A DNA stretch of 32,000 nt from an uncultured Bacilli bacterium (GTDB lineage Bacteria > Bacillota_I > Bacilli_A > RF39 > UBA660). Shown here piece after piece: positions 2,158 to 32,000 of the stretch (within the stretch, counting starts at the first letter, position 1; every line of letters starts with the position of its first letter). Location of the stretch: positions 39,362-71,361 of the forward strand of contig CAKOWI010000006.1 in assembly GCA_934122275.1 (NCBI GenBank), in the 5' to 3' direction. The notes beneath the pieces were generated by a model. It saw only the letters and a program-made list of their open reading frames with translations, was not told the DNA's origin and did not search any database. The position numbers and the translations under genes were made by a program.

Positions 2158-5201
<3,044 letters not shown>

Positions 5202-5851: not shown

Positions 5852-5873
5852 AAAATGCACAAATGTGCATTTT
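5852..5873 (-). terminator. Hairpin overlapping dnaN stop
   Basis: AAAATGCACA / TGTGCATTTT inverted repeat spanning the dnaN stop codon, followed by a T-run when read on the minus strand. Confidence 0.5.
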
Positions 5874-6993
5874 AATAAGTTATTATAGGTACTATTAATT
5901 GTAATATGGTATCATCCGATTCATCAGCTACTATAATAGGTTTCATTTCATCATTAAATTTTAACACTACATTTGTGCTTTCCACTGTTTTAATGGCATC
6001 CATCATAAATTTAGAAGAAAAAGCTATCTTTATATTATTTTCGTTATTTTTATTTATTTCTAATCTTTCTTCTACCCTACCTATTTCTGGAGAATTTGAT
6101 GATATAACAACTTCATTATCTATACATTCAAATTTTATTATATTTTTATCCTTTTCACTTGTTAATAATGCTGCTCTATCTATTACATTATATAAATCTG
6201 TACAATTAGCAGTTATTTCAAGTTCAAATGTAGAAGGTATCAACCTATTTACATCAGGAAAAGTACCACTTAATACTCTTGTTTGAAATAATGTATCATC
6301 AAACTTAAATAAAACCTTATTTCCAAATATATGCATTTCTATATTATTATCTGTCTCATCTAATATTCTAGTTAACTCGATTAAATTTTTTCCAGGAATA
6401 ACAATATTTACATCTTCTTCTGATTCTTCTGAAAGTGTTGTAAACTTTTTAGCAAGTCTATAAGAATCAGTAGCAATACATTCTAATTTATCTTTTGATA
6501 TTTTAAAGTTAATACCTGTTAAAATAGGTCTAGTTTCTTGTGTTGATACAGCAAAGAAAGTCTTATTTATCAAATTTTTAAACTCTTCTTTCTTTAATAT
6601 TATAGGTTTTTTCTTTTCTTCTAAATTTAAATTTGGAAATTCACTAGCATCCATACAATTCAAATTAAACTCTGATTTTCCACAGGAAATCAAAACCTTT
6701 ATATTATCAAACAATTCTATGTTTACTATGTTTCCATCTAATTTTCTAATAATTTCTAATATGTATTTTCCTTGAATAACTGTAACTCCAGTTGATTCGA
6801 TAGATTCTAGTTTTTCTTTATCTATAAAAGATTCTATACTTATATCATTATCGCTAGCACTTAAGAATAATCCATTATCAGTTAAATTAAATTTAATACC
6901 AGATAATATAGGTATTATATTCTTTGAAGATAATGCTTTGCTAACTGAATTTAAACTATGTAATAATGTTTCTTTTTTTATACTAAATTTCAT
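5872..6993 (-). CDS. dnaN: DNA polymerase III beta sliding clamp
   Basis: 373-aa ORF starting MKFSIKKETLLHSLNSVSKALSSKNIIPILSGIKF, with three-domain clamp length, immediately downstream of dnaA. Confidence 0.95.
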   Translation of the reverse strand: MKFSIKKETLLHSLNSVSKALSSKNIIPILSGIKFNLTDNGLFLSASDNDISIESFIDKEKLESIESTGVTVIQGKYILEIIRKLDGNIVNIELFDNIKVLISCGKSEFNLNCMDASEFPNLNLEEKKKPIILKKEEFKNLINKTFFAVSTQETRPILTGINFKISKDKLECIATDSYRLAKKFTTLSEESEEDVNIVIPGKNLIELTRILDETDNNIEMHIFGNKVLFKFDDTLFQTRVLSGTFPDVNRLIPSTFELEITANCTDLYNVIDRAALLTSEKDKNIIKFECIDNEVVISSNSPEIGRVEERLEINKNNENNIKIAFSSKFMMDAIKTVESTNVVLKFNDEMKPIIVADESDDTILQLIVPIITY

Positions 6994-7134
6994 TATAATT
7001 CTCCTTTATTATTAAATTATTATTATTATTACTGTGGATAAAGTGGAAAACTCCGTTTTTTGTTGAAATATAAAGTTTTAATGATAAATTTAATCCACAT
7101 CATAAGTTGATAAATCTTCAAGTAATCCACAAGT
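6994..7134. promoter_or_regulatory. oriC part 2 (dnaA-dnaN spacer): DnaA boxes plus trinucleotide run
   Basis: Perfect TGTGGATAA at 7033-7041, abutted by AGTGGAAAA at 7042-7050. TAATCCACA occurs at 7091-7099 and 7123-7131. An (ATT)5 run at 7016-7030, preceded by ATTATT at 7008-7013, ends 2 nt from the tandem boxes. Confidence 0.6.
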
Positions 7135-8487
7135 CTATTTTATTTTACTTTTTAAAGCATCAATTATTGCCTTAAATTGTGGATTAGTTTTTACTTCATT
7201 ATCAATTTTGTCAACAGAGTGCATAACTGTTGAATGATCCCTTCCGCCAAATTGTATTCCAATTTTAGGAAATGACTCATCCGTCATAGTTCTACACAGA
7301 TATATGGCAATTTGCCTTGGAAATGCAACAGATGCTTTTCTCTTTTTAGATTTTAAATCTTCAACAGTAATATTATAGTATTCTGCTACAACCTGCTGTA
7401 TTTTTTGAATATTATTTTTTACAAAAGAAGATTTAGACAGGTAATCTTTTAAGGCATCAATCGCAAGTGTTAAATTGATATTACTAGTATTAAACATTGT
7501 TGCATATGCTATTATCCTTGTTAAGGCACCTTCTAACTGCCTTACGTCAGAATCACAGTTATTAGCAATGTAGGCTATAACATCATCACTTATCTCGCCT
7601 TCCATGTTTTGTCCTAACATTTTTTTCTTTAATATCTCTACACGCATTTCATAATCTGGTGGATAAATATTAACACTTAATCCCCAATTAAATCTTGTTC
7701 TTAGTCTATCCTCTAGTTTCTTTAAATCATCAGGCGATCTATCAGAAGATATTATTATTTGTTTATTATCATCATAAAGATTATTAAATGTGTTGAAAAA
7801 TTCCTGCTGAGTTTGTGTTGCACTGCCTAAGAATTGAATATCATCTATTATTAATACGTCAACTCCCCTATACTTACTTTTAAAACTATCTATATAGTCA
7901 AAATTGGTTCCAGATTCATCTTTCTTATTTATATTTAAAAAGTCAGATATAAACTGTTCACTCGTAACATACAGAACCTTTTTATTAGAGTTTTCAATGA
8001 TAAAATTACCAATAGCATGCATAAGGTGTGTTTTTCCAAGACCACTATTACCGTATAAGAACAAAGGATTATATGTTTTTCCAGGATTTTCTGCAACAGA
8101 AACAGCGGCCATATAAGCAAATTTATTACTATCACCTACTATAAAAGAATCAAAAGTATATTTTGGATTCAAATTAGACTTTTCTGGTGTATTAATAGGA
8201 ACACCTACGTTTTCCACAGAAATATTAATATTCTCTTTTACATCATCTTCAAAAACAAATTCAAAATCAAAGCTAGTGTTTGTTATTTCACTAAATACGT
8301 CTGATATTGTTTGATACCAAGTCCCTTCTAGTTGAGCTTTTTGCATTGGTGAATCAACTAGTACTTTAGCAACATTATTATCAAGTGATAATAGTTTTGT
8401 ATCTTTAAACCAAGTATCGTATGATATAGAGGCAATCATAGATTTTATTTTTTCTAGAAAACTATTCCATATATTATCTATGTTCAT
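7135..8487 (-). CDS. dnaA: Chromosomal replication initiator DnaA
   Basis: 450-aa ORF with AAA+ Walker A GNSGLGKTHLMHA, Walker B LIIDDIQFL and the domain IV DNA-binding region (FPRQIAIYLCRTMTDESFPKIGIQFGGRDHSTVMHSVDKI). Confidence 0.97.
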   Translation of the reverse strand: MNIDNIWNSFLEKIKSMIASISYDTWFKDTKLLSLDNNVAKVLVDSPMQKAQLEGTWYQTISDVFSEITNTSFDFEFVFEDDVKENINISVENVGVPINTPEKSNLNPKYTFDSFIVGDSNKFAYMAAVSVAENPGKTYNPLFLYGNSGLGKTHLMHAIGNFIIENSNKKVLYVTSEQFISDFLNINKKDESGTNFDYIDSFKSKYRGVDVLIIDDIQFLGSATQTQQEFFNTFNNLYDDNKQIIISSDRSPDDLKKLEDRLRTRFNWGLSVNIYPPDYEMRVEILKKKMLGQNMEGEISDDVIAYIANNCDSDVRQLEGALTRIIAYATMFNTSNINLTLAIDALKDYLSKSSFVKNNIQKIQQVVAEYYNITVEDLKSKKRKASVAFPRQIAIYLCRTMTDESFPKIGIQFGGRDHSTVMHSVDKIDNEVKTNPQFKAIIDALKSKIK

Positions 8488-8874
8488 AATAACCTCCTTT
8501 CCCCCTATGAAACGAGATATTCATATATATTTTATCAAAAAAACTGTGTAAAAACAACGAAAAATATATATTTAAATGTTTTCCACAAGAGTTTTCCACA
8601 GGATAAACTCTTATATTTCAACAAAATTCGACAAAATCCACTTTTCCACAAAAAAAAATTTGTCGAAAAAGTTATATACAATTGAAAGTTTTCCACAGAT
8701 TGTTGATAAATATTGAAAACTAAGCAAATAAACAGAGTTTAAGATTGATACCTGTGGAAAACTATGTGCAAAAGAAAATTAATAAAATTGATTAAATTTT
8801 TAAAACTGTGTATAATTTATGAATACTTTAATCTAAATAATTAGCATAAACATAAGTATAGTAAACAAAAAATG
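8488..8874. promoter_or_regulatory. oriC part 1 / dnaA promoter region with DnaA-box cluster
   Basis: TTTTCCACA (1 mismatch to TTATCCACA) occurs at 8579-8587, 8592-8600, 8642-8650 and 8689-8697, with an inverted TGTGGAAAA at 8753-8761. Two TGTCGAA (Spo0A-box consensus) heptamers lie at 8627-8633 (reverse) and 8661-8667. Confidence 0.75.
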
Positions 8875-8903
8875 TTGACAATTAGTAAAATAAAATTTAT
8901 AAT
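8875..8903 (+). promoter_or_regulatory. Consensus sigma-A type promoter for rpmH
   Basis: TTGACA (8875-8880), a 17-nt spacer, then TATAAT (8898-8903), about 50 nt upstream of the rpmH ATG. Confidence 0.6.
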
Positions 8904-8952
8904 ATTCGTGTTCGAAAAAGACATATTATAATAAAATGCGGAGGTGTTATTG

Positions 8953-9081
8953 ATGAAAAGAACTTTTCAACCTAATAATCATAAGAGAAAAAAGAATCAT
9001 GGTTTTTTTGCTAGGAAGTTAGCCGGAACTGGTATTATGAATTTAAGAAGAGCAAAAGGACGTAAGAAGTTATCTGCATAA
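8953..9081 (+). CDS. rpmH: 50S ribosomal protein L34
   Basis: Below the ORF-track size cut-off. My translation is [42 protein letters not shown] (42 aa). GGAGGTG SD lies upstream, in the conserved position before rnpA. Confidence 0.95.
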
Positions 9082-9083
9082 TT

Positions 9084-9109
9084 CCACTTATAGAAATAAG
9101 TGGTTTTTT
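9084..9109 (+). terminator. Rho-independent terminator/attenuator after rpmH
   Basis: CCACTTAT-AGAA-ATAAGTGG stem-loop followed by TTTTTTG. Confidence 0.6.
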
Positions 9110-9126
9110 GTTATGAAGAGGTTAAT

Positions 9127-9453
9127 ATGAAGAAAATAAATATAATAAAGGAAAGAAAAGATTTTGACCACATATTTAAATTAAGAAATCAAAAAACTTC
9201 AAAATATGCGTACTTATATATAGGATGTCCATCAGAATGTAAATATAGATTTGGGATATGTGTATCAAAGAAATTAGGAAATGCTGTTTTAAGAAACAAA
9301 TTAAAAAGAAGAACAAAAGATATAATTGATAAAAGCGGATTGCATTTTTTTAATAAAGATTATATAATTGTACTAAAGAAAAGTGCTTCAAGTGCTGAGT
9401 ATTTAGAACTTAAAGAAGATCTTTTAGTTCTTTTAAAAAATATAAGTGAATAG
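9127..9453 (+). CDS. rnpA: RNase P protein component
   Basis: MKKINIIKERKDFDHIF... with the conserved GNAVLRNKLKRRTKD (RNR) motif. Start taken at ATG 9127 rather than the track start 9100, which lies inside the rpmH terminator. Confidence 0.9.
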   Translation: MKKINIIKERKDFDHIFKLRNQKTSKYAYLYIGCPSECKYRFGICVSKKLGNAVLRNKLKRRTKDIIDKSGLHFFNKDYIIVLKKSASSAEYLELKEDLLVLLKNISE

Positions 9454-9466
9454 GAGATTAAACTAG

Positions 9467-10447
9467 ATGAAAAAACTAAAGAAAATATTATTGGTTTTTT
9501 TACTGGTTTTTTTATTAGCAGGATGTACGCAACCTGTTACTAAAGAAGTTAGTAAAAATGGTAAGAAAAAAACTGAGGCCGTTACTTATGATAAAGGAAA
9601 AAAGGCAACAGGACAAAGACTTACCAAAAACATAATATGTAAACCAACTAATAAGGAATTAGTAGAAGTTTACAAAGAAAATAAAGTTAATACTGATAAG
9701 TTAGTTGATTGTGAAAAATTTACTCCAAGTATTAAAGATAGTGAAGGTATTTGGGATAATATATTTATTAAGCCTCTAGCGTGGGTTATATTAAAATTAG
9801 GATATTTAGTTAAAAACTTTGGTTTGGCAGTTATAATAGCAAGTATAATAATAAGGTTGATATTATATCCAGTAACAAAAAAGAGTGCAATGCAATCTGA
9901 AAATTTAAACAAAGCACAACCAGAATTACAAAGACTTGAAAAAAAATATGCAAATAAGACTAATGATCAACAAGCTATGATTCAAAAATCACAAGAAATG
10001 ATGGCAATTTATAAAAAATACAATATTTCTTTGATGTCAGGATGTATAGTTGCATTCTTACAATTACCATTATTTATAGCATTTTTAGAAGCAATTAATA
10101 GAACACCAGCTATTTTTGAAGGCAAGTTTTTAGGGTTAGAGCTAGGAACAACACCAATATTTGCAATTTTAAAAGGAAATTATGCTTATTTAATTTTACC
10201 AATTATAATTTTTATAGTTACTTACTTTTCGTTAAAGCAAAATAAAAATGCTGCACCAACTGATTCTAATCCAGCTGCTATGTCAACAAAAATGATGATG
10301 AATGTTATGATTTTTGTTATTACGATAAGTTCATTTAATTTATCAACAGCAATTGGATTATATTGGATTGCATCAAGTTTATTTACAATCATTCAAAATG
10401 CATTAATTAAAAGAGGTGGAAATAATGTTAGAATTAAAAAGTCATAA
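9467..10447 (+). CDS. yidC: Membrane protein insertase YidC/SpoIIIJ family (lipoprotein)
   Basis: Lipobox LLAGC at the N-terminus, a multi-TM Oxa1-type core (LILYPVTKKSAMQSENLNKAQPELQRLEKKY), in the position after rnpA. Confidence 0.93.
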   Translation: MKKLKKILLVFLLVFLLAGCTQPVTKEVSKNGKKKTEAVTYDKGKKATGQRLTKNIICKPTNKELVEVYKENKVNTDKLVDCEKFTPSIKDSEGIWDNIFIKPLAWVILKLGYLVKNFGLAVIIASIIIRLILYPVTKKSAMQSENLNKAQPELQRLEKKYANKTNDQQAMIQKSQEMMAIYKKYNISLMSGCIVAFLQLPLFIAFLEAINRTPAIFEGKFLGLELGTTPIFAILKGNYAYLILPIIIFIVTYFSLKQNKNAAPTDSNPAAMSTKMMMNVMIFVITISSFNLSTAIGLYWIASSLFTIIQNALIKRGGNNVRIKKS

Positions 10448-11048
10448 TTATAGTGGAAAAAACAAAGATGAGCTATTGAGTACTTCTTTAAATGAATTAA
10501 ATGCAAATACTGATGAAGTTTATTATGATATAAAAGAGGAAGTAACTGGTAGTTTATTTAAGAGTAAAAAATATTATTTAACTGTTGTACTAAAAAATGA
10601 TGTTATTGATTATATTAAGTCTTACTTAAAGGAAATAACTGATTTAATGGGTATTTCTTGTAATTTTGAAATTCAAAAGAGAGAAGAATATATAAAAGTT
10701 AATATTGTTTCAGATAGTAGTTCAATTTTAATTGGAAAAAATGGAAAGACTATGAGTTCTCTTCAATATCTTTTAAAGCAATCTATCCAAAGTAAGATTC
10801 CTGCAAAAATAAATATAATAATTGATACTAATGATTATAGAGAGAAAAAAGAAAAAAATATAGAAAGATTAGCTATTAGATTAGCTAAAGAAGTAAGAAA
10901 AACTAAGGTAGATGTAAAAATGGATAGTATGAATTCTTATGAAAGAAGAATAGTACATAATAAATTATCTGGTTTTAAAGGTGTTACAACCGAAAGTATT
11001 GGTGAAGAACCAAATAGATGTGTAGTTATTAAATGTATAGAGGAATAG
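10425..11048 (+). CDS. jag: Jag/KhpB RNA-binding protein (KH + R3H domains)
   Basis: The C-terminus SYERRIVHNKLSGFKGVTTESIGEEPNRCVVI is an R3H motif, and ILIGKNGKTMSSLQYLL is KH-like. Start at ATG 10425 (AGAGGTGGA SD) overlaps the yidC end. Confidence 0.85.
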   Translation: MLELKSHNYSGKNKDELLSTSLNELNANTDEVYYDIKEEVTGSLFKSKKYYLTVVLKNDVIDYIKSYLKEITDLMGISCNFEIQKREEYIKVNIVSDSSSILIGKNGKTMSSLQYLLKQSIQSKIPAKINIIIDTNDYREKKEKNIERLAIRLAKEVRKTKVDVKMDSMNSYERRIVHNKLSGFKGVTTESIGEEPNRCVVIKCIEE

Positions 11049-11111
11049 AAATGTTTCTCTATTTTTTTGTATTATATGCTATAATACACATATCAAAAGG
11101 AAGTGAACTTT

Positions 11112-12455
11112 ATGGATGATACAATAGTTGCAATATCAACAGCACTTGGAGAAGGAGCAATATCTATTATTAGAGTATCAGGAGTTGATGCTATAAAAAT
11201 AATTAATCCTTTATTTGATGGAAAAGATTTAGAAAAAGTATCAAGTCATACAATAAATTATGGTCATATAGTATATAATGGTGAGATTATAGATGAGGTC
11301 TTATTATCAATTATGAAAGCACCTAAAACGTATACAAAGGAAGATGTAATAGAAATAAACACTCATGGATCAATTGCAGTTGTTAATAAAATAATGGAAA
11401 TATTACTTCTTGAAGGTTGCAGATTAGCAGAACCTGGTGAATTTACTAAAAGGGCATTTTTAAATGGTAGAATAGATTTAACAGAATCAGAAGGAGTTAT
11501 GGATTTAATAAATTCTGAAACAGAACTAACTAGAAAAATGGCTATTAATGAGTTATCTGGTAATGTTTCTAGGTTAATAACTGATACAAGAGAAGATATA
11601 GTAAGTTTGATATCTAATATAGAAGTAAATATAGATTATCCTGAGTATGAAGATATAGAAGTAGTAACAATAAACAAAATAAAAGAAAAAGTACGAGAAA
11701 TAAAAGAAAAATTATTAAAGACATTAAAATTATCAGAGGATGGAAAAATATTAAAAGATGGTATTAAAACGGTTATATTAGGAAAACCAAACGTAGGTAA
11801 ATCAAGTCTTTTAAATGCTTTATTAGAAGAGGAAAAAGCCATTGTAACAGATGTAAAAGGTACAACACGTGATATAGTAGAGGGAAGTATTTTAGTAGGT
11901 GGTATAAAACTTAATTTAATAGACACAGCAGGTGTTAGAAAATCAGATGATATAGTTGAAAAAATAGGTATTGAAAAAAGTTTAAACCTAATAGATGAAG
12001 CAGAATTGGTATTACTTATTTTGGATGCTAGTTGCCCTTTAAGTGAAGAAGATAAGTATTTGCTAGAAAAAACTAAAGATAAGAAAAGAATTATAATAAT
12101 GAATAAAATAGATTTAAAGTTAAATAATTCCTATATGGATGATGTTATAAAAATAAGTGCTAAAAATAATGAGGGAATAGAAGATATAAAAGATGCAATA
12201 AAAGAATTGTTTAATGTTGGAACATTTATGAGTAAAAACTTAACTTTCTTTACTAATGCAAGACAAATATCTTTATTAAAGTCTGCTATTAAATCTTTAG
12301 AGGACGTAGAACAAGGCATTAAAGAAGAAAGAGAAATAGACATGATTGAAATAGATTTAAAATTAGTATGGGAAAAATTAGGGGACATAATAGGAGCCAA
12401 TTACACGGAAGAATTAGTTGATAATTTGTTTAGTAGATTTTGTTTAGGAAAGTAA
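11112..12455 (+). CDS. mnmE: tRNA modification GTPase MnmE
   Basis: DTIVAISTALGEGAISIIRVSG N-terminus, G1 motif GKPNVGKSSLLNAL, DTAG, NKIDL and the C-terminal FCLGK motif. Confidence 0.95.
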   Translation: MDDTIVAISTALGEGAISIIRVSGVDAIKIINPLFDGKDLEKVSSHTINYGHIVYNGEIIDEVLLSIMKAPKTYTKEDVIEINTHGSIAVVNKIMEILLLEGCRLAEPGEFTKRAFLNGRIDLTESEGVMDLINSETELTRKMAINELSGNVSRLITDTREDIVSLISNIEVNIDYPEYEDIEVVTINKIKEKVREIKEKLLKTLKLSEDGKILKDGIKTVILGKPNVGKSSLLNALLEEEKAIVTDVKGTTRDIVEGSILVGGIKLNLIDTAGVRKSDDIVEKIGIEKSLNLIDEAELVLLILDASCPLSEEDKYLLEKTKDKKRIIIMNKIDLKLNNSYMDDVIKISAKNNEGIEDIKDAIKELFNVGTFMSKNLTFFTNARQISLLKSAIKSLEDVEQGIKEEREIDMIEIDLKLVWEKLGDIIGANYTEELVDNLFSRFCLGK

Positions 12456-12464
12456 ATGTGTTTT

Positions 12465-12491
12465 AAAAACTTGGGTTTTATCCAAGTTTTT
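12465..12491 (+). terminator. Rho-independent terminator after mnmE
   Basis: AAAAACTTGG-GTTTTAT-CCAAGTTTTT followed by ATTG. Confidence 0.7.
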
Positions 12492-12565
12492 ATTGTATGT
12501 GACAAAATATGAGCTTTTTATAACATTTGATTTATATAATAAATGAACTGATTAAAGGAGCTTAT

Positions 12566-13491
12566 ATGAATTATTATGAAGAAATAAAAGATCTAATAGA
12601 AAAGAAAGAAGTAAAAGATAGTGTAAGAAGGCTTAGTTATAATAGTGATAAGTTAAAAACTTATTATGAAATAGGCAAGTTATTAGTAGAAGCACAAGGC
12701 GGAGAAGAAAGAGCAAAATATGGTAATAGTTTAATTAAAAAGTGGTCATTAAAATTAGTAGAACAATAGGTAGTGGATATAATATATCTAATTTAAAAAG
12801 AATGAGGCAATTTTATACAATAATTCAAAAAGGTGCCCCGCTGGAGCACCAATTAAATATTAGTTGGACAAATTGAAAATATTTACTTCCAATCAAAAAT
12901 GAAAATGAAAGAAATTATTACATAAATCAGTGTATTTTAAATAATTTATCTAAAAGAGAACTTGCAAAACTTATAAAAGAAAAAGCTTATGATAGACTTT
13001 CTTACGCTGATAAAAATAACATCAAGATTATAAATTCGAAAAATGAAGCTAGTTGTAGTTTAAAAGATATGCTTTTAGATCCAATTATAATAAAATCACC
13101 TGGTAGTGAACATCTAAGGGAAAAAGTACTAAAAAAATACATATTAGATGAATTAAGGGATTTTTTCTTACAGTTAGGTTCAGGATTTTTGTATGCTGGA
13201 AGTGAGTATAAATTAGATTATTGTGGTAAAAAATTTTATGTAGATATACTTTTATTTAACATTAATTTAAATTGTTATATTCCGGTAGAACTAAAGCTTA
13301 ATAGTACTAATTATAAAGATGTAAGCCAGGTTCAGTTATATAGAAACATAATAGATAACACCATAAAAAAGAAGCATCACAATAAAAGTATAGGATTAAT
13401 TATATCTAAAAGGAATGATAATTTTATATTTGAATACGTAAATGATGATGGAGTTTATTTAATTAGTTATGATTTAGAAAAAGTTATATAA
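12566..13491 (+). pseudogene. Decayed YhcG/DUF1016-type PD-(D/E)XK nuclease gene
   Basis: Three collinear pieces of one protein: MNYYEEIKDL...KWSLKLVEQ (stop 12767-12769); then, after a frameshift, GSGYNISNLKRMRQFY...ISWTN, ending at an in-frame TGA (12874-12876); then ...NYYINQCILNNLSKRELAKLI...FLYAGSEYKLDYCGKKFYVDILLFNINLNCYIPVELK (nuclease core). AAGGAG SD precedes ATG 12566. Confidence 0.75.
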
Positions 13492-24525: not shown

Positions 24526-27018
24526 GTGAAATTATTTAAAAGATTATTTGATCATGAATATAAAGAATTAGAAAAGTTTAAAAAAATAGCAGATGAAATA
24601 TTTGCTTTAGATGAAAAATATGCAAAGATGAGTGATAAACAATTACAAGCATGCACTAAAAAGTTAAAGAAAAGATTATCAGATGGAGAAACAGTTGATG
24701 ACATAGTTACTGATGCTTTCGCTCTTGTTAGAGAAGCTTCATACCGTGTTATAGGCGAAAAACCATTTTATGTACAAGTGTTAGGTGCACTTGCAATTCA
24801 TTTTGGTAATATTGCTGAAATGAAAACTGGTGAAGGTAAAACTTTAACTTGTGTTATGCCTGCTTATTTAAATGCATTAACTGAAAAGGGTGTTCATGTT
24901 GTTACTGTAAATGAGTATTTAGCAACACGTGATGCTAAATGGATGGGACAGATATATGAATTTCTTGGTTTAACGGTTGCTATAAATTTAAGAGAGATGT
25001 CTTCTAAAGAGAAAAAAGAAGCTTACAATGCTGATATTTTATACTCTACTAATAATGAATTAGGTTTTGACTATTTAAGAGATAATATGGTAGTTGATGC
25101 AGAAGATAGAGTTCAAAGACCACTTAATTTTGCAATAATAGATGAGGTAGACTCTGTATTAATAGATGAGGCTAGAACACCACTTATTATATCTGGTGGA
25201 GTTATGAAATCAGCTAATCTTTATAAGGATTCTGATAGATATGTTAAGACATTAAAAGAAAATGAAGATTATACAATAGATGCTAAAACAAAGGACATAA
25301 CTTTAACTGATCAAGGAACTGCAAAGGCAGAAAAGTACTTTAGATTAGATAATTTATATGATATTGAACATTCTGCATTGGTACACCACATAAATCAAGC
25401 ACTTAAAGCAAATTATACAATGCATAATGATGTTGATTATGTTGTACAAGATGGAAAAGTTGTAATTGTAGACCAATTTACAGGAAGACTTATGCCTGGT
25501 AGAGCATTTTCCGATGGTCTTCATCAAGCTATAGAAGCTAAGGAAAATGTTGAGGTTCAGGAAGAAACTAAAACCCTTGCAACTATTACGTTCCAAAATT
25601 ACTTTAGAATGTATGAAAAATTATCTGGTATGACTGGTACTGCTAAAACCGAGGAGGAAGAGTTTAGAAATATTTATAATATGTTTGTTATACAAATACC
25701 AACTAATTTGCCAGTAATAAGACAAGATGCAACAGATTTAATTTATTCATCAAAAGAAGAAAAATATAAAGCAATAATTGCCGAAATAAAAAAGAGACAC
25801 GAAACAGGTCAACCTATATTAGTAGGTACAATTGCCATTGAAACCAACGAATTACTTAGTGAATTATTAAAGAAGGCACATATAAAACATGAAGTATTAA
25901 ATGCTAAAAACCATGCTAGAGAAGCTGAAATAATTGCTAAAGCAGGAGAAAAGGGTGCAGTTACTATTGCAACAAATATGGCTGGACGTGGTACTGATAT
26001 TAAGCTTGGAGAAGGTGTTAAAGAATTAGGTGGTTTATGTGTAATAGGAACAGAAAGACATGAATCAAGACGTATAGATAACCAGTTAAGAGGTCGTTCA
26101 GGTCGTCAAGGAGATCCTGGATACAGTCAATTTTTTGTTTCATTTGAAGATGAATTGATGGTAAGATTTGGTACAGATAGATTTAAAACAATACTTGAAA
26201 TGGCAGGTTTAGATAGTCAAAGAAATATGCGTAGTAAAACTATTACAAGATCAGTTGAAACCGCACAAAAGAGGGTTGAGGGAAATAACTTTGATGCTCG
26301 TAAACATTTATTACAATATGATGATGTAATGGGAAAACACCGTGAAATTATGTATGCAAAAAGAAATACGATATTAGATGCTGACGATGTTCATAGTTAC
26401 GTAATAGATACAATAAAAGAACATATTGAAATAGTTGTAAGAAGACATATTAATGAACATGGTGTTATTATTGAAGCTGATTGTAATGAAATAGTAGAAT
26501 ATGTTAATGAAAATTTACTTAATAAATCTAATTTAAAATTATCAGAAATACTAAATAAAGAAGTAAATGAAATAATTGAAGTCATAACCGAAAAAGTTTT
26601 AAATGAGTATGAGAATAAAATAAATGAATTACCTGATGAAATAAGAAGAGACTTTGAAAAAGCTATAAGCTTACAAGTTATTGATAATTACTGGATGGAA
26701 CATATTAATACTATGGATCATTTAAGAGAAGGTGTTTCTCTAAGAGGGTATGCTAATGAGGATCCACTTCAAGCTTATATAAGAGAAGGATTTGAATTAT
26801 TTGATAAAATGCTTGATAATATTTGTAAAGATACTACTTTATATCTATTAAAAGCTGAAATAAGACAAAATTTACAAGCTAAACAAGTAAAAGGAAATAC
26901 AAATGAAGCTAGAGATTTCTCTTCAAGAAAGCCTATTAAAAAGGGAAAAAAGGTAGGACGTAATGATCCGTGTCCTTGCGGAAGTGGTAAGAAGTACAAA
27001 CAGTGCTGTGGCAAATAG
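24526..27018 (+). CDS. secA: Preprotein translocase ATPase SecA
   Basis: 830 aa with Walker A MKTGEGKTL, DEVDSVLIDEARTPLIISG, TNMAGRGTDIKLG and a C-terminal zinc motif CPCGSGKKYKQCCG. GTG start with an AAGGAGATGA SD. Confidence 0.97.
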   Translation: MKLFKRLFDHEYKELEKFKKIADEIFALDEKYAKMSDKQLQACTKKLKKRLSDGETVDDIVTDAFALVREASYRVIGEKPFYVQVLGALAIHFGNIAEMKTGEGKTLTCVMPAYLNALTEKGVHVVTVNEYLATRDAKWMGQIYEFLGLTVAINLREMSSKEKKEAYNADILYSTNNELGFDYLRDNMVVDAEDRVQRPLNFAIIDEVDSVLIDEARTPLIISGGVMKSANLYKDSDRYVKTLKENEDYTIDAKTKDITLTDQGTAKAEKYFRLDNLYDIEHSALVHHINQALKANYTMHNDVDYVVQDGKVVIVDQFTGRLMPGRAFSDGLHQAIEAKENVEVQEETKTLATITFQNYFRMYEKLSGMTGTAKTEEEEFRNIYNMFVIQIPTNLPVIRQDATDLIYSSKEEKYKAIIAEIKKRHETGQPILVGTIAIETNELLSELLKKAHIKHEVLNAKNHAREAEIIAKAGEKGAVTIATNMAGRGTDIKLGEGVKELGGLCVIGTERHESRRIDNQLRGRSGRQGDPGYSQFFVSFEDELMVRFGTDRFKTILEMAGLDSQRNMRSKTITRSVETAQKRVEGNNFDARKHLLQYDDVMGKHREIMYAKRNTILDADDVHSYVIDTIKEHIEIVVRRHINEHGVIIEADCNEIVEYVNENLLNKSNLKLSEILNKEVNEIIEVITEKVLNEYENKINELPDEIRRDFEKAISLQVIDNYWMEHINTMDHLREGVSLRGYANEDPLQAYIREGFELFDKMLDNICKDTTLYLLKAEIRQNLQAKQVKGNTNEARDFSSRKPIKKGKKVGRNDPCPCGSGKKYKQCCGK

Positions 27019-27078
27019 CCCATAAAATAAGGGTTTGCGAGATTTGAAAGGACTAAAAAAAGGTTGAAAAAACCTCAA

Positions 27079-27178
27079 ATGTTTGTAAATTGTTTGTAAA
27101 AATTACAAAATGTTTGTAAAATAGTTCTCAAACCCTTATAAAATAATGAAAAAAATTTACAAACATTTTTACAAACAA
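27079..27178. repeat. Array of five 11-bp (A/T)TGTTTGTAAA motifs (3 direct, 2 inverted) at the island junction
   Basis: ATGTTTGTAAA at 27079-27089, TTGTTTGTAAA at 27090-27100 and ATGTTTGTAAA at 27110-27120. Inverted TTTACAAACAT at 27156-27166 and TTTACAAACAA at 27168-27178. The first three copies are bracketed by the inverted repeat ATAAGGGTTTG(C)GAG (27027-27041) / CTCAAACCCTTAT (27127-27139). Confidence 0.6.
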
Positions 27179-27241
27179 AATAAATACTAGCAATTTGCTG
27201 GTATTTTTTCATTTGCTAAGCAATTAGTGGAGAAAAAAATT

Positions 27242-27544
27242 ATGGGAAATGTTTATGTTCAAAAAAGGGGAAAGGTATATCAATATCAATTTGCGATAGC
27301 ATCTATTGATGGTAAAAGAAAATATAAAAACAAGTCAGGATTTAGGACTAAGTCAGAAGCTATTGAGGCAGGAGTAAAGGCATACAATGAATATATAAAT
27401 GTGGGACACTGTATAGAACCAAGCAAAATGTCTTATAGTGATTATTTAGATTATTGGATGAAAGAGCATTGTGAAATAAATTTAAAGTATCACACCATAG
27501 AAGCATACAAAAATATAATAAAAAATCATATTGTTAATGATATT
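27242..27544 (+). pseudogene. 5' stub (~100 codons) of a tyrosine recombinase/phage-type integrase
   Basis: MGNVYVQKRGKVYQYQFAIASIDGKRKYKNKSGFRTKSEAIEAGVKAYNEY (arm-binding AP2-like N-domain) plus SYSDYLDYWMKEHCEINLKYHTIEAYKNIIKNHI (start of the SAM-like core-binding domain). Recognisable sequence stops at about 27532 and the ORF drifts to a stop at 27613. No catalytic domain is present anywhere downstream. Confidence 0.7.
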
Positions 27545-27547
27545 ATA

Positions 27548-28511
27548 AGAATGTACAAAAAATGTAATATAAAAATGCACAATTTTGTACATTCTTTTGT
27601 TATACTTTTATAGACTTAGGAGGTATGACACAAAGGAAATAAATAAATTAAAACAGGAGTTATTAATAATGAAAACAAATAATATTAAACCAAATTATTC
27701 TGAACTAGCAAGATTGCATAGTTGTGATAGAAGGATCGTAAAAAAATAAGATAATGGATATGAGGGCAAACCAACTACTCGTGATAAAGAATCTAAATTA
27801 GATAAATATAAAGAAGAAATAAAATCAAAATTAGAAAAAATAAAAGAAAATATAGATCAATATATTGATTTAATAAATAATAAAAAGAAAGATGTTGTAG
27901 ATGCATTGTATGAATTAACAAATTAAGAAATAGAATTAAGGAATGAAAAAGCAATTTATGGATGTGTAAGAACAGCTGGTTTTTCATTTTTAAAAACTTT
28001 TGAAGATTTTGATTTTTCATTTTAACAATCAATTAATAATGAACAAATAATTGATTTTAACAATTTGAGATTTATAGAAAATAAAGAAAATATAATTTTT
28101 GTTGGAAGCCCAGGAGTTGGGAAAACACATTTAGCAACAACAATAGGAATAACTGCCACTCAAAATAGGAATTTTACATATTTTATAAATTGTAATGATT
28201 TAATAGCTAATTTAAAAAAAGCAAATTTTGAAAAAAGATTTATTAATCAAATTAATCACTATGCGAAATATAAAGTATTAGTAATCGATGAAGTCGGTTT
28301 CTTACCAGTTGATCCTGAGGGAGCGAAAATTTTATTTCAATTAATAAATAAAAGATATGAAAAACATTCGACAATAATAACAACTAATAAACCTTTTGGT
28401 AAGTGGCACGAAATATTTAATGATGTAACATTAGCAAATGCCATACTGGATAGATTATTACATCATTTTCATATTATTAATATAAACGGAAATTCATATC
28501 GTTTAAAAGAA
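27548..28511 (+). mobile_element. IS21-family remnant (istA' N-terminal stub fused to a damaged istB)
   Basis: 13-bp inverted repeat AGAATGTACAAAA / TTTTGTACATTCT (27548-27560 / 27583-27595) sits at the point where integrase homology ends. istA-like HTH region MKTNNIKPNYSELARLHSCDRRIVKK*DNGYEGKPTTRDKESKLDKYKEEIKSKLE starts at 27669. IstB-like ...ALYELTN*EIELRNEKAIYGCVRTAGFSFLKTFEDFDFSF*QSINNEQIIDFNNLRFIENKENIIFVGSPGVGKTHLA...VLVIDEVGFLP...TTNKPF..W...ILDRLLHH...NGNSYRLKE follows. In-frame TAA codons lie at 27747, 27924 and 28023. Element boundaries are uncertain. Confidence 0.65.
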
Positions 28512-28817
28512 ATAGATAATTTTTGCAAAGAAAATTTAAAAGTAGAACTTAATGCAAAAACTCAAATAGGTAAAGTAAAAAATGGTATAGACTTTTTAGG
28601 TTTTAGATTAATACTAACCGAAACAGGTAAAGTTGTAAAAAAGTTAAGAGGTTCTTCTAAAATAAGATTTAAAAGGTATTTAAAAAATCTAAAAAAATTA
28701 AAAAAAAAAGGAGTAATAGACACAGAATATGTAAATATAAGAAGAAATAGTTTTGCCTCCCGTATAAAGAGAACAGATGAAAGTAGGGCTTTTTTGAACA
28801 AAATAATGTCAGAATAA
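28512..28817 (+). pseudogene. 3' fragment (thumb region) of a reverse transcriptase (DGR / group-II-intron-like type)
   Basis: IDNFCKENLKVELNAKTQIGKVKNGIDFLGFRLILTETGKVVKKLRGSSKIRFKRYLKNLKKLKKKGVIDTEYV matches the RT domain-7/thumb pattern (..L.LN.KTQI....G.DFLG......TGKV..KLR..SK.R.K). It is fused in frame to the IstB remnant (track ORF 28065-28817 is this chimera). The palm/YxDD domains are absent. Confidence 0.6.
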
Positions 28818-28833
28818 TAAAAAAAAGTGTAAT

Positions 28834-28882
28834 TTTGCACGAATTTATAGGAACTTTCACGATTTTATGGTAAAATTATAAT
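28834..28882 (+). promoter_or_regulatory. Putative promoter/operator of the cassette: two direct repeats plus a -10
   Basis: TTTGCACGAATTTATAGG (28834-28851) and TTTCACGATTTTATGG (28855-28870) are direct repeats about 21 nt apart. TATAAT at 28877-28882 lies 17 nt before the ORF1 ATG. Confidence 0.4.
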
Positions 28883-28898
28883 GAGTGAGGTATAATAA

Positions 28899-30791
28899 AT
28901 GAACTTTGGTTTAAATAATAAGTTTACGTTACTTTCAGAAGAAGAAATTTTTGGAAGTCAAGAAATAGATATTATTAGTAAAATGGGTGGTAGGTGTGCA
29001 ATATCTGATTTTGCAATCCTTTTAGGTGCTTATGTATCTAATGATTATTTTATAGAAGATGATAGTTCATTAAAAGGCAGAACAACTTGGTGGTGGACTA
29101 GATCTTCTGGTGGCGATGGTAATGTTCGTAATGTCCTCAGGGATGGTAGTCGTTCCTGGGATAAGGCATGTAAGCGTTCCGGTGCCGTTCGCCCAGCTTT
29201 ACCGTTTTCTAGCATCTCTGACATCTCCCCGAACGTAGTGAGGGGAAGAAGTGGATTTTTGGAAGTTGAATATGGAGAATATCCACAATATGCAGTTGAC
29301 ACAAGATTAGCTAGAACACTTGATAGCGAATATTCAGCAGGTAGATTAAAAAAAACAGGTAAGACATATACAACAGATTCAAGAGTATGGAATGCTTCTT
29401 CAGAGAGTTTTAAAGCGAGAGAACATCATGAATATGAATATAATGGTAAGAAATATGTCAAGGTGAAATATGTTGATACCGACTCTTGCAAATTATCAAA
29501 TGGCGAAAGTTATCAAATTGGTAATGAAGTTTGGGTTGAAGTTGCACCAATAAAATGGCTAGTTGATGAAAAATCAAGATTAATGTTAAGTAAGACTTGT
29601 CTTGCTTCTGGAATAAGATTTTGTAATAATGGACAATATAGAGGCGATTTTGAGAGAAGCGAGATGTATATGTTCTTAAATACATATTTTGCAAAAGACA
29701 TAACACCGACTGTTGTTCATGAAATGACACCAGAAGAAAAAGCACAATATGAAGAAGAACAAAAACAAGCTGAAAGAAGAAGAAACCCTTATGGTTTGAA
29801 ATTTGGACAAGTTAGTGAAGAAGAAATTATAAAAGGAGCAATAGAAAGTGGAGTTGCAGTATTCTTGCATGGACCTTCATCAGAAGGTAAATCTGCAAGA
29901 GTTAAGCAAATTGATCCAACTTGTGAAATTATATATCTTCGTAATGCTACACCAGAAAGTTTAAATGGTAAAAGTGTTTATAATCAAGCAACAGGCGAAA
30001 TGATGGATGTTAAGCCAAGTTGGTTGAAAAAATTAGAAGAAAAATGTGCAAATGAGCCAGATAGATTTCATATTGTGTTTTTAGATGAAATAACTAATGC
30101 ATTACCTAGTATTCAAGGTATAGCATTTAACATTGTATTAGATAGAGAAGTTAATGGTATTTGGAAATTACCAGAAAATGCAAGAATTGTTGCAGCAGGA
30201 AATGATATGAAAGATTCATTAGCTGCAAATCAATTAGCAGAGCCATTATTCAATAGATTTGCTCATGTATATATTAAAACAACTACTGAAAGTTGGTTAA
30301 AATGGGCAAGTGAACATAATATACATCCAGCAATTTATTCTTATATTGCTTATAAGAATGGTGAAACATTAAGAAGTAAGTATGATGGTGAGAAACCTAA
30401 TGCTGATCCTAGAAAATGGGAAATGGCTTCTAAAATGCTTTATGCAACAGGAAGTCCAGAAATGTTAAGGGCATTAGTAGGTGAAGATATAACAAGAGAA
30501 TTTGTTGAGTTTTGTAATCAACAAGTAATAACATTAGATGATGTATTAAATGGAAATTATACCGATAGAGATATACAGGCATTAAATACTGCTGAAAGAT
30601 ATGCAACAGCTATGGGATTAACACAGGTAGATGATGATAATTTAGAAAAAGATAGAGGATTCGTTACAGGATTAGGAGCAGAATTTGGAGCAATTTTTGA
30701 TGCTTTATGGACACATGGCGATGAAAGAAAGTTAGAAAGACTTGCAGAAGCAAAACTTGCTGAAATACCTGGAGGAGGTATAAGAAGATAA
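28899..30791 (+). CDS. Fusion protein: N-terminal WWxRS...VRPAL lectin-like (DUF6273/DUF1566-like) domain plus C-terminal MoxR/AAA_5-type AAA+ ATPase
   Basis: N-terminal FTLLSEEEIFG...AISDFAILLGAY...TTWWWTRSSG...GAVRPALPF, then PIKWLVDEKSRLMLSKTCL...SEMYMFLNTYFAKDI. C-terminal Walker A GPSSEGKS, Walker B HIVFLDEITNA, sensor-1 RIVAAGND and PLFNRFAHVY. GTGAGGT SD. No signal peptide or TM segment. Confidence 0.8.
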   Translation: MNFGLNNKFTLLSEEEIFGSQEIDIISKMGGRCAISDFAILLGAYVSNDYFIEDDSSLKGRTTWWWTRSSGGDGNVRNVLRDGSRSWDKACKRSGAVRPALPFSSISDISPNVVRGRSGFLEVEYGEYPQYAVDTRLARTLDSEYSAGRLKKTGKTYTTDSRVWNASSESFKAREHHEYEYNGKKYVKVKYVDTDSCKLSNGESYQIGNEVWVEVAPIKWLVDEKSRLMLSKTCLASGIRFCNNGQYRGDFERSEMYMFLNTYFAKDITPTVVHEMTPEEKAQYEEEQKQAERRRNPYGLKFGQVSEEEIIKGAIESGVAVFLHGPSSEGKSARVKQIDPTCEIIYLRNATPESLNGKSVYNQATGEMMDVKPSWLKKLEEKCANEPDRFHIVFLDEITNALPSIQGIAFNIVLDREVNGIWKLPENARIVAAGNDMKDSLAANQLAEPLFNRFAHVYIKTTTESWLKWASEHNIHPAIYSYIAYKNGETLRSKYDGEKPNADPRKWEMASKMLYATGSPEMLRALVGEDITREFVEFCNQQVITLDDVLNGNYTDRDIQALNTAERYATAMGLTQVDDDNLEKDRGFVTGLGAEFGAIFDALWTHGDERKLERLAEAKLAEIPGGGIRR

Positions 30792-31183
30792 TGGAAAACA
30801 AGAAAGAAATATTATTATCATATATTAAAGCAAATGTTGCACCAATATTAGTTGATTTTATATCTGGTAAAGATATAAATGGTGCAGTTGTCTTACCTGC
30901 CAATGTTGATGTTAAAGAGTTAAATGGTCATTATGATGGAGCAGATTTTATGCCACCAAAATGGCTTAATGAAATATTAAGTACAAATGCAAGTAAAATT
31001 TTAGTAATTGATAAAATTGATGCAATAGCAAAAGAAGAACAATTAAAATTTTGTGAATTATTAGAACATAGGAAAATATCTACATTTGAATTACCAAAAA
31101 GCTGTGTGATAATTGTAACAGCGAACGAAATAAATAAAGATAAGATTAACGAAGAAATATTCTCATTAGTTGCACGAATTTGA
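30791..31183 (+). CDS. Truncated, catalytically degenerate AAA+ module (paralog of the ATPase core of the preceding gene)
   Basis: The start overlaps the upstream stop (TAATG). FMPPKWLNEIL...KILVIDKIDAIAKEEQLKFCELLEHRKISTFELPKSCVIIVTANE...INEEIFSLVARI aligns by eye with ORF1 MDVKPSWLKKL...HIVFLDEITNALPSIQGIAFNIVLDREVNGIWKLPENARIVAAGND...LAEPLFNRFAHV. There is no P-loop, and Walker B is DK rather than DE. Confidence 0.7.
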   Translation: MENKKEILLSYIKANVAPILVDFISGKDINGAVVLPANVDVKELNGHYDGADFMPPKWLNEILSTNASKILVIDKIDAIAKEEQLKFCELLEHRKISTFELPKSCVIIVTANEINKDKINEEIFSLVARI

Positions 31184-31193
31184 GGTATAAATT

Positions 31194-32000
31194 ATGAAAT
31201 ATGATATTGAAGCGTTAAAAAGGAAAATGCTTGTTAAATATCCATTTTTTGGGAGTGTAGTAGCAAGCGTTGGTTATAAGGAAAATAAAGATATATCAAC
31301 TGCTGGTACAGATGGAGAAATAATTTACTACAATCCTAAATATTTAGAAAGTTTAAGTGTTGAAGAGCAAACTTTTATATTTGCTCATGAAGTATGTCAT
31401 ATTGCATTTAATCATATCTTAAGAAGTGAAGGTAAAGATCCAGAGTTATGGAATATTGCTACTGATGGTGTTATTAATCAATTTCTTAAAAGAGATGGAT
31501 TAAAAATGGCAAAAGGTGGAGTTGATATTGCTGAAGCTATAAACTATGATGCTGAACAATTATATGAAAAACTATTACAAGAAAAGCAGCAAAGACAACA
31601 GCGACAACAAAATGGACAGGGTAATGGTCAAAATCAACAAAGTAATCAACAACAAAATCAGCAACAAAGTGGTAGCAGTGGGCAAAGTGGAAATAGTCAA
31701 CAAAAACAATCGCAACAACAGAGTGGTAATTCTCAAAGCCAAGACCAACAACAAAATCAAGAAAATCAGCAACAAAATGGTGGCGGTAGACAAAGTGGAG
31801 ATAACCAACAGCAATCACAATCTCAACAACAAAATAGTTCTGGTGGTGGAAGTTCACAAGAACAAGATAAACAATCACAAGAACAAAGTGGTGGTGGATT
31901 TAGCGAGGATTCACAAGAAGAAGAAAAACAACAAGATGTTGGACATGATACTCACAGTATGTGGGAACAAGCAGTAAAAAAACATAAAGAGGAACAAGAA
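31194..32000 (+). CDS. HExxH putative metallopeptidase (DUF2201_N-like) with Q/N/S/G-rich linker; 3' end beyond the window (a VWA-like domain is expected)
   Basis: Not in the ORF track (open to the window edge). My translation is MKYDIEALKRKMLVKYPFFGSVVASVGYKENKDISTAGTDGEIIYYNPKYLESLSVEEQTFIFAHEVCHIAFNHILRSEGKDPELWNIATDGVINQFLKRDGL...QQRQQRQQNGQGNGQNQQSNQQQ...HDTHSMWEQAVKKHKEEQE, 269 codons without a stop. GAGGT SD 7 nt upstream. Confidence 0.8.
   Translation, partial: MKYDIEALKRKMLVKYPFFGSVVASVGYKENKDISTAGTDGEIIYYNPKYLESLSVEEQTFIFAHEVCHIAFNHILRSEGKDPELWNIATDGVINQFLKRDGLKMAKGGVDIAEAINYDAEQLYEKLLQEKQQRQQRQQNGQGNGQNQQSNQQQNQQQSGSSGQSGNSQQKQSQQQSGNSQSQDQQQNQENQQQNGGGRQSGDNQQQSQSQQQNSSGGGSSQEQDKQSQEQSGGGFSEDSQEEEKQQDVGHDTHSMWEQAVKKHKEEQE
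31578..31934 (+). repeat. CAA/CAG/GGT-rich low-complexity coding tract (Q/N/S/G linker)
   Basis: About 120 codons dominated by caa, cag, aat, agt and ggt. This tract generates the spurious alternative-frame ORFs 31546-31977(+), 31537-31878(-) and 31575-31814(-). Confidence 0.8.

Follow-up and report, generated by a model that had tools for sequence, protein, structure and literature searches.

What do three co-directional genes behind secA in the genome of an uncultured Bacilli bacterium encode, and does the debris of mobile elements in front of them belong to the same system? The open reading frames (ORFs), here called ORF1, ORF2 and ORF3, lie at the end of a 32-kb stretch of contig CAKOWI010000006.1 (assembly GCA_934122275.1, positions 39,362 to 71,361 of the forward strand), which is referred to below as the window; ORF3 runs off the end of the window, and its C-terminal part is unseen there. 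The original prediction, made from the letters alone, described the trio as a lectin-like sensor fused to a MoxR-type AAA+ ATPase, a dead AAA+ paralog and a protein of the metallopeptidase-VWA type, and regarded it as a candidate system against phages or mobile elements. Comparison with related loci indicates that the reverse transcriptase (RT) piece upstream is part of the story: the cassette is almost certainly the target operon of a diversity-generating retroelement (DGR) whose cis-acting diversifier has been lost in the window.

A retroelement upstream of ORF1 in related loci

The evidence for a DGR is at the family level and derives from related loci in which the upstream region is intact. 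In these loci the gene order is avd-like gene, template repeat (TR), RT of about 338 aa, ORF1, ORF2 and ORF3. The avd-like gene, the TR and an intact RT were found directly upstream of ORF1 in 15 related loci. Counting all loci, an intact avd-like gene and/or RT precedes ORF1 in about 16, remnants of the RT are left in about a dozen, and the others have no RT within 6 kb; an intact RT stands directly before ORF1 in L004, L005, L082, L083 and others. The 370-nt gap between the avd-like gene and the RT holds a 77-103-nt copy of ORF1 nt ~200-320, so that the TR corresponds to ORF1 codons ~67-106. Among the mismatches between the TR and the variable region (VR) of ORF1, 162 of 186 fall at adenines of the TR (15 loci; adenine fraction of the TR 0.30; binomial p~1e-58), and the adenine specificity reaches 100% in seven loci. 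Such adenine-specific TR/VR mismatches are the signature of mutagenic retrohoming by a DGR, in which the RT copies the TR with errors at adenines and the copy replaces the VR near the 5' end of ORF1. The TR end sequence to be expected for a second avd-TR-RT unit is ...GTTCGCCCAGAT.

The RT itself is 337-342 aa long and matches RVT_1 at 9e-14. In the PDB its best match is 8ub7, a 328-aa RT (E 2.7e-37) that we take to be the DGR RT of Bordetella phage BPP-1, and group II intron RTs follow at 1e-8. The motifs LGNLSSQ and YMDD can be read in the sequence, and are presumably significant for a DGR-type RT. Meanwhile, the best phage RT matches include those of the DGR phage nd12, Faecalibacterium phages and Bordetella phages. 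The avd-like protein (193 aa) aligns with profile positions 5-106 of the 107 of bAvd at E 3.3e-4, with 21.5 bits vs a cut-off of 40, and the avd-like protein of L083 has a weak precomputed bAvd match. A group II intron origin of the RT fragment was also considered, and is ruled out by the 338-aa length of the RT, the TR/VR pair and the ranking of the PDB matches.

These results bear on the simplest account of the locus, which is that of a static, self-contained defence cassette of lectin sensor, MoxR and VWA protein with unrelated integrase, IS21 and RT pieces in its neighbourhood. The three genes are intact and translationally coupled, and the many loci that are free of RT within 6 kb would suit such an account. 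However, the RT remnant of the window has orthologs in the RTs that immediately precede ORF1 in at least 16 loci, and the adenine-specific mismatches between TR and ORF1 refute the view that the RT debris is unrelated; a static cassette can thus hardly be maintained. Because the remnant is orthologous to the upstream RT and the TR matches ORF1, the RT-less state is derived and not ancestral. The integrase, IS21 and RT debris noticed in the original prediction is present, and its RT piece, rather than being unrelated junk, is a remnant of the cassette's own DGR RT.

The footprint of diversification is visible in ORF1. An entropy profile was computed from 117 ORF1 homologs at 70-96% identity. 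The hypervariable codons, aa 78-94 (29130-29180 of the window), amount to about a dozen codons randomised on a fixed scaffold: aa 78, 80-82, 84, 86-89, 92 and 94 each show 11-16 residue types and entropies of 2.1-3.7 bits, and aa 91 shows 11 types and 1.9 bits. These positions alternate with the invariant V79, G83, R93, G95, R98 and P99, and the ATPase half is nearly invariant. In addition, there are 36 pairs of proteins, each from different samples, without a single difference in the ~606 aa outside aa 71-94, and 35 of the 36 differ inside this segment, at 1-7 of the 24 VR positions (mean 5.1). Among 692 pairs that are less than 3% divergent outside the VR, the substitution rate inside the VR is 27-fold that outside. 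The VR of the window ends in the conserved GC-rich GGTGCCGTTCGCCCAG, as in active loci. The GC-rich inverted repeat that follows (Table 1) keeps its offset in 20 of 22 compared loci, being altered in L034 and L037, and has a weak folding energy. By analogy with the BPP-1 DGR, in which a hairpin has this role, the repeat may be a candidate DGR target-recognition hairpin; it overlaps conserved codons.

Some loci show peculiar arrangements of the VR-bearing region. In L006 (10313-10392), the GC stem grows to a ~19-bp perfect inverted repeat with a DNA fold of -23.9 kcal/mol, far stronger than at every other locus compared. In L049 (6040-13860), the first 420 nt of ORF1 with the VR are repeated three more times at 100% identity and with a spacing of 1967 nt, which points either to tandem amplification in the very recent past or to an error of assembly. 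Extra ORF1-like paralogs beside a single ORF2-ORF3 pair occur in L010, L037, L041-L043, L045, L048, L050, L051 and L060, and in L043 (400-12700) the N-terminal region is present five times. Such loci look like arrays in which alternative receptor-ATPases use one common VWA/peptidase partner.

In the window, about 100 C-terminal residues of the RT are left, and the catalytic YMDD box is missing from them. Neither a TR-like repeat nor an avd-like gene was found anywhere in the 32 kb. The IstB fragment in front of the remnant (aa 2-149 of its ORF) covers positions 87-234 of the 238-position profile, and thus the first ~86 profile positions are missing; it forms the 5' part of a chimeric ORF (28065-28817) to which the C-terminal remnant of the RT is joined in frame. 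Through the IS21 fragment and deletions the window has lost avd, the TR and two thirds of the RT, and the cis diversifier is gone. All three target reading frames are intact and keep their catalytic motifs, in ORF3 as far as the window shows. The ratios of non-synonymous to synonymous substitution rates (dN/dS) between the window and L001 are 0.095 for the AAA half of ORF1, 0.11 for the ORF3 N-terminus, 0.24 for ORF2 and 0.62 for the lectin-like half of ORF1; therefore, the target genes have been maintained after the loss of the diversifier, with purifying selection on their ATPase and peptidase parts. Against L001, the closest locus, the divergence climbs from ~1-2% (27000-29700) to ~10% over the ATPase half (29700-30800), and this jump indicates probable recombination between alleles within ORF1.

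Could the cassette of this genome nevertheless be a non-functional remnant on its way to pseudogenisation? The element is heavily degraded, with a truncated integrase, IS21 fragments and a truncated RT, and a sister lineage at the same secA site (L085, L086) has lost still more, including the IstB::RT piece. On the other hand, the three frames and the catalytic motifs are preserved, the dN/dS values of 0.1-0.24 for the AAA half, ORF2 and ORF3 were obtained against an L001 allele with the same degraded upstream region, and the RT-less arrangement persists in several metagenomes; gut metagenomes from the Hadza and from elsewhere contain the identical degraded arrangement (L001-L003). We therefore consider decay of the trio to be highly improbable, and the cassette is treated below as a maintained target operon.

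Table 1. Position of the cassette, its motifs and the upstream remnants in the window (position 1 is the first nucleotide of the 32-kb stretch).
Feature	Position	Strand	Description
Integrase N-terminal fragment	27227-27613	+	128 aa; Arm-DNA-bind_4 2e-8, Phage_int_SAM_3 3e-8 (Pfam)
IS21 IstB fragment	28065-28511	+	Pfam IstB_IS21 4e-58
DGR RT remnant	28497-28802	+	tblastn with the 338-aa RT of L004: RT aa 232-333, 66% identity
ORF1	28899-30791	+	630 aa; lectin-like DGR-target module (aa ~1-270), linker, MoxR-like AAA+ (aa ~300-630)
Variable region (VR)	29097-29199	+	ORF1 aa ~67-100; positional homology to TR-matched VRs (L004, L082, others)
Inverted repeat TCCCC-N11-GGGGA	29226-29246	+	GC-rich; ~30 nt 3' of the VR
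Walker A GPSSEGKS	29871-29894	+	Read from the sequence; invariant in 35 homologs
Walker B IVFLDE	30072-30089	+	Read from the sequence; D396 and E397 invariant in 35 homologs
ORF2	30791-31183	+	130 aa; AAA+ alpha/beta-core paralog of ORF1
ORF3	31194-32000	+	N-terminal 269 aa, cut by the window end
HEVCH of ORF3	31386-31400	+	Zincin-like HExxH, within the DUF2201_N domain

The proteins of the cassette

The three reading frames are tightly packed. ORF1 and ORF2 share a one-base TAATG overlap, and a 10-nt gap with a GAGGT precedes ORF3; the coordinates of the frames, the overlap, the gap and the GAGGT had all been read exactly, and the Walker A, Walker B and HExxH motifs are at the places that had been given for them.

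The C-terminal half of ORF1 is an intact AAA+ ATPase, as had been proposed. Residues 309-576 match phrog_1297, a PHROGs profile labelled 'ATPase', at 3e-47, and the Walker A motif, N435 and R453 are, like the Walker B acids, invariant across 35 ORF1 homologs, so that the AAA+ core motifs, sensor 1 and the arginine finger among them, are complete. The NCBIfam models gave no match to the cassette proteins, and searches of the PDB with sequence or profile queries (ORF1, the ORF1 family, the ORF2 family and the N-terminal-module family) returned nothing usable. With tblastn, ORF1 matched 739 phage and 102 plasmid records at 24-31% identity, with the C-terminal half alone aligned, and many of these matches are annotated as MoxR-family or MoxR-like ATPases. 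The plasmid collection contained distant MoxR ATPases only; full-length relatives of ORF1 were not found in it. A search for contigs with the exact sequence of ORF1 returned none.

The wealth of phage matches raises the question of whether the trio is an assembly chaperone, which would fold, mature or process a structural complex such as a conjugation apparatus or a phage-like particle, with the variable domain picking the client. Membership of the proteins in phrog_1297 and phrog_1314 (the latter for ORF3, see below) and the 739 phage records with an ATPase homolog speak for such a role; moreover, the related ATPase/peptidase-vWA pair of jumbo phages has been proposed as a virion-assembly chaperone (PMC7824862), and a role of this kind has also been proposed for the ATV tail system. 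However, the 739 phage matches miss the lectin-like half, and none covers at least 80% of the query. In addition, it is hard to see why a housekeeping chaperone should require a client-binding site that hypermutates. No structural phage genes stand beside the loci examined, and because no structural genes are linked, the chaperone role is less likely; overall we hold it to be very unlikely.

A charged helical linker joins the ATPase to the N-terminal lectin-like module. In most homologs the module starts as early as residue 2-8, too near the N-terminus for a signal peptide to fit in front of it, and ORF1 lacks a signal peptide and transmembrane (TM) segment; the N-terminus thus appears cytoplasmic, in agreement with the original prediction. 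An AlphaFold2 (AF2) model of aa 1-305 has a mean confidence (pLDDT) of 85.8. The family relationship of the module is less clear. P0067, a protein 78% identical to ORF1, matches DUF6273 with 24.3 bits vs a cut-off of 23.5, its aa 59-99 aligning to profile positions 127-168 of 172. DUF6273 is at or near the cut-off in a minority of the family (5 of 77 members), and the match is always to the C-terminal, VR-bearing end of the profile. Two DUF6273 phage proteins were among the Foldseek matches of the N-terminal model at E 0.15-0.2 only. The suggestion of a DUF6273-like or lectin-like binder was right in kind, but the score is marginal and, as set out below, neither the protein of the window nor the Foldseek search bears it out.

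The module is not confined to this operon. The segment aa 1-270 (28899-29710 of the window) matches 1790 clusters (50% identity) at E<=1e-3, in which it is found alone (270-350 aa) or joined to varied C-termini (P0241-P0390). This ATPase follows it in only ~20 of the best 150 clusters, and other C-termini are ankyrin, pentapeptide, leucine-rich (LRR_5) and DUF4116 repeats. The module thus marks a large, mostly unannotated superfamily of proteins that lack signal peptides.

ORF2 is a degenerate AAA+ paralog of the ORF1 core that lacks the nucleotide-binding motifs. An hhalign comparison of the ORF2 family with ORF1 309-456 gave a probability of 88% and E 3e-6 over 123 of 130 columns; in the profile alignment, the Walker A segment is missing from ORF2 and there is no conserved acid at the equivalent of Walker B. 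The AF2 model of ORF2 (pLDDT 89.8) matched AAA+ cores exclusively in Foldseek (TMq 0.6-0.68), including LONP1, the MoxR proteins CbbQ2 and NorQ, NtrC1, dynein, RFC and MCM, and the idea of a dead AAA+ paralog is well borne out. ORF2 is kept in the Bacilli-type clade. It is missing in a subclade at 57-59% identity, where ORF3 comes directly after ORF1.

ORF3 matches DUF2201_N (PF13203) at 8.2e-39 and phrog_1314 at 5e-39. Its VWA-like part lies past the window end and is known from orthologs: the full-length ortholog in L001 (454 aa) has DUF2201_N at 1e-37 and the VWA-like DUF2201 at 3e-14. Of 69 extracted orthologs, 59 have HE[VIL]CH and 50 have a DxSGS MIDAS motif. The profile searches thus support the AAA+ and metallopeptidase assignments of the original prediction, and likewise the DUF2201_N plus VWA composition of ORF3. 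Two observations on this protein may be added. Residues ~127-240 (31572-31915) form a Q/N/S/G-rich low-complexity linker with imperfect 30-53-nt repeats, the length of which differs widely among orthologs, and the orthologs range from ~380 to 540 aa overall. Meanwhile, phrog_1314 is labelled 'HNH endonuclease' in PHROGs, yet the match is to the zincin-like DUF2201_N domain, so the label looks like a mis-annotation.

Distribution, setting and a possible role

Relatives of the cassette occur in 241 species-representative genomes, nearly all of them metagenome-assembled genomes of gut Bacilli, 'Tenericutes' or Clostridia, together with a few isolates (for example Zhenpiania hominis). Full-length homologs of ORF1 at 70-96% identity number more than 120. 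ORF1 and ORF3 are together in nearly every locus that is long enough, a few having ORF1 paralogs in between, which goes far beyond a chance arrangement. No neighbours are conserved, and the trio moves as a unit, in support of the original prediction. The nearest neighbours, two per side, number 128 and 105 proteins and fall into 169 and 122 Pfam families, respectively; recurrent ones are limited to helix-turn-helix (HTH) regulators, a few integrases and a few DNA methylases. A conjugative element surrounds the module in L004, L008 and L082, and its genes include those for PrgI, a VirB4-like ATPase, CHAP, PemK and serine recombinases. L082 (1-21900) carries a complete integrative and conjugative element (ICE) with DGR and trio, which abuts yabG-veg-spoVG. 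In L006 (9700-14200), the trio stands alone between ftsX and veg-yabG, with no RT, TR or transfer genes, which suggests that an element has decayed here and left only the trio behind.

Conjugation genes (VirB4/CHAP) are common to only 3 of the 85 loci. That the trio belongs to the core gene set of conjugation was ruled out by this count and by the unrelated nature of the other neighbours.

A weightier alternative is that the DGR and the trio serve the ICE or island that carries them: the heads would capture defence or restriction factors of a recipient, the ATPase-peptidase would inactivate the captured host proteins, and hypermutation would adapt the element to new hosts. The module of L004, L008 and L082 sits between PrgI/VirB4/CHAP and regulatory or recombinase genes, integrase genes or fragments flank many copies, the RT is nearest to the DGR RTs of gut phages, and the ATPase and its DUF2201 partner are both in phage protein families. 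However, transfer genes are as rare as stated above and most copies lie among housekeeping genes with no transfer machinery. Moreover, the trio stays intact and under purifying selection after the element has decayed (L006, the window, L085), which fits a benefit to the host better. On balance, service to the element seems improbable.

We tentatively propose that the cassette is instead a diversifiable intracellular sensor-effector of the conflict-system type. ORF1 would form a cytoplasmic MoxR-type AAA+ ring, in which the hypervariable lectin-like heads would be receptors of a substrate or ligand. ORF3 would dock on the ring via its VWA/MIDAS part, as in pairs of the NorQ-NorD type, and would supply a zincin-type peptidase on a long disordered tether, and ORF2, with its nucleotide-blind AAA core, would be a non-catalytic subunit or adaptor. 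Binding of a ligand by the head would lead to ATP-driven remodelling, and the ligand would then be handed over to the peptidase, or the peptidase itself would be set free or switched on. The likeliest ligand would be a protein of an invading phage or mobile element, because of the cytoplasmic location, the hypermutation and the mobile, patchy and neighbour-independent distribution. The immune-like mechanism on its own is plausible but uncertain; the wider reading, in which a DGR target operon and a sensor-effector mechanism are taken jointly, we regard as fairly probable.

A bolder version is that the cassette is a DGR-programmable cytoplasmic AAA+ machine, with which unicellular gut Bacillota of small genome size would use hypermutation to re-aim a MoxR-type ATPase/peptidase receptor at new intracellular targets. 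If these targets were, for example, phage or plasmid proteins, it would be an adaptive-like immune receptor at the protein level that is spread by ICEs. Re-aiming might even continue in trans after the loss of the cis RT, which is hinted at by the RT-less VRs described in the next paragraph. We consider this version rather doubtful.

Several results weigh against the sensor-effector reading or parts of it. The Pfam model AAA_5 scores 16.3 bits on ORF1 vs a cut-off of 22 and the generic Pfam AAA models are also below their cut-offs, and placement in the MoxR subfamily, which draws on the PHROG match and on BLAST-level similarity of 25-31%, is marginal. A Pfam scan gave no DUF6273 match in the ORF1 of the window, and Foldseek of the confident N-terminal AF2 model against PDB and BFVD gave nothing significant, which leaves the lectin fold of the VR domain unconfirmed. 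The three cassette proteins had no match to the defence models of PADLOC-DB v2 at E<=0.01. Among the 105 downstream neighbours, PADLOC returned mostly generic HTH models, and single matches to NsnA, DolB, PD-T4-2 and a restriction endonuclease (REase) model. There was no clear defence-island signal among the nearest neighbours; this comparison had no background control and is counted neither way. The physical interactions among ORF1, ORF2 and ORF3, and the defence function of the cassette, are what we infer from the above. Because some copies are in conjugative elements, the beneficiary could be the element and not the host, and the role in virion assembly proposed for the jumbo-phage pair points elsewhere again. 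Finally, the VR of the window and that of L085 (8199-8301), both RT-less, differ at 14 of 103 nt, with flanks that are 95-97% identical. A trans-acting DGR, recombinational exchange of alleles or independent loss of the RT could each account for this difference, and therefore, given also the mosaic ATPase half, the VR can be called frozen only provisionally.

As regards the setting in the window, the island begins with the tyrosine-integrase fragment, just past a terminator-like hairpin of secA at 27182-27206, and hpf and secA (830 aa) adjoin it on the upstream side. The GC content of 29001-32000 is 0.31-0.36 vs roughly 0.23-0.29 across most other parts of the window, in keeping with the slightly GC-richer DNA noticed before; the GC-rich patch is the VR plus its GC-rich 3' flank. 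Positions 1-13000 of the window span oriC: gyrB, recF, dnaN and dnaA occupy the minus strand as far as 8487, beyond which yidC, mnmE and mnmG are encoded on the plus strand, and the sign of the GC skew flips at ~8.5-9 kb. Since the replication origin is inside the window, the island is only ~19 kb from oriC.

If the sensor-effector mechanism is true, hypermutating intracellular receptors would extend beyond multicellular lineages. The three-gene target and the three-part diversifier would also be compact enough for heterologous work, and would offer a natural scaffold for the directed evolution of AAA+ substrate specificity. There is also a lesson for annotation: "RT debris" beside a lectin-like gene should prompt a check for a TR/VR pair.

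Comparison with known systems

The nearest relatives of the upstream half are classical DGRs. Like those of BPP-1 Mtd and Treponema TvpA, the related loci have an avd-like gene, TR and RT layout with adenine-specific mutagenesis, and the VR of the family alternates invariant and hypervariable positions and ends in a GC-rich element. In contrast to the targets of BPP-1 and TvpA, where the VR is C-terminal, the VR here is near the 5' end of the target and in an N-terminal domain. In addition, the target carries an AAA+ ATPase and lacks a signal peptide and TM segment, unlike classical DGR targets; cellular DGR targets are reported to be for the most part binders that are secreted or anchored in the membrane (Roux et al., PMC8144416). 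The DGR surveys consulted for comparison, including PMC8144416, make no mention of ATPase-fused DGR targets.

The DUF6273 'tentaclin' targets of gut phages (PMC10743442; bioRxiv 10.1101/2024.10.15.618418) have the same avd-TR-RT-target order, and the RT of the family is 43% identical to that of phage nd12. Tentaclins, however, run on into Ig-like domains and have been proposed to be virion receptor-binding proteins (PMC10743442; bioRxiv 10.1101/2024.10.15.618418), whereas the module of ORF1 runs into a further beta-rich domain, the linker and the AAA+ ATPase.

On the effector side, the phage pair of MoxR and metallopeptidase-vWA proteins of jumbo and N4-like phages (PMC7824862) is closely comparable, as ORF1 aa 309-576 and ORF3 are members of phrog_1297 and phrog_1314. 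The ATPase homologs in the 739 phage records are 26-31% identical to ORF1. The phage ATPases lack the ~300-aa lectin-like half; among the matches listed, every one starts near ORF1 aa 300. Meanwhile, NorQ-NorD, CbbQ-CbbO and RavA-ViaA combine an AAA+ ring with an adjacent VWA/MIDAS partner, as here, and the model of ORF2 superposes on CbbQ2 and on NorQ from NorQ-NorD complexes. In contrast to the cassette, these pairs mature specific enzymes, and have no hypervariable receptor, VWA-borne peptidase or mobile-element context.

Conflict systems of the MoxR-vWA type in which DGRs diversify a lectin-fold domain have been predicted by comparative genomics (Kaur et al. 2020 PMC7159879; Dore et al. 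2024 PMC10907252). The original prediction was right that no characterised system is known to have such an architecture, but it missed this link to the predicted systems. In the literature searched, links between DGRs and MoxR were found in the Kaur/Aravind and Dore/Wilbanks lines of work and in a cyanobacterial expression study, and no others were found. The VMAP/iSTAND ternary systems of these studies differ from the cassette in several respects. Their FGS lectin domain is C-terminal on the vWA protein or on a separate target, whereas here the variable domain is N-terminal on the ATPase. They have a third component of their own, whereas the only conserved third gene here, judged by neighbourhood comparison, is the 130-aa ORF2. 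The vWA partner here has an N-terminal zincin of the DUF2201 type, unlike in the VMAP/iSTAND systems. Their hosts are multicellular cyanobacteria, gammaproteobacteria and actinobacteria, whereas those of the cassette are small-genome gut Bacilli and Clostridia. The cassette is therefore outside the VMAP/iSTAND ternary systems. Generally, cellular DGR targets are mostly surface binders, and the intracellular ones are few and consist of predicted "antigen sensors" of the MoxR-vWA or STAND kind, which were tied to multicellular bacteria and have served as an argument that multicellularity and immune-like systems are connected. What is new here is a hypervariable domain placed directly on an ATPase, together with a phage-type peptidase-vWA protein, in unicellular gut bacteria.

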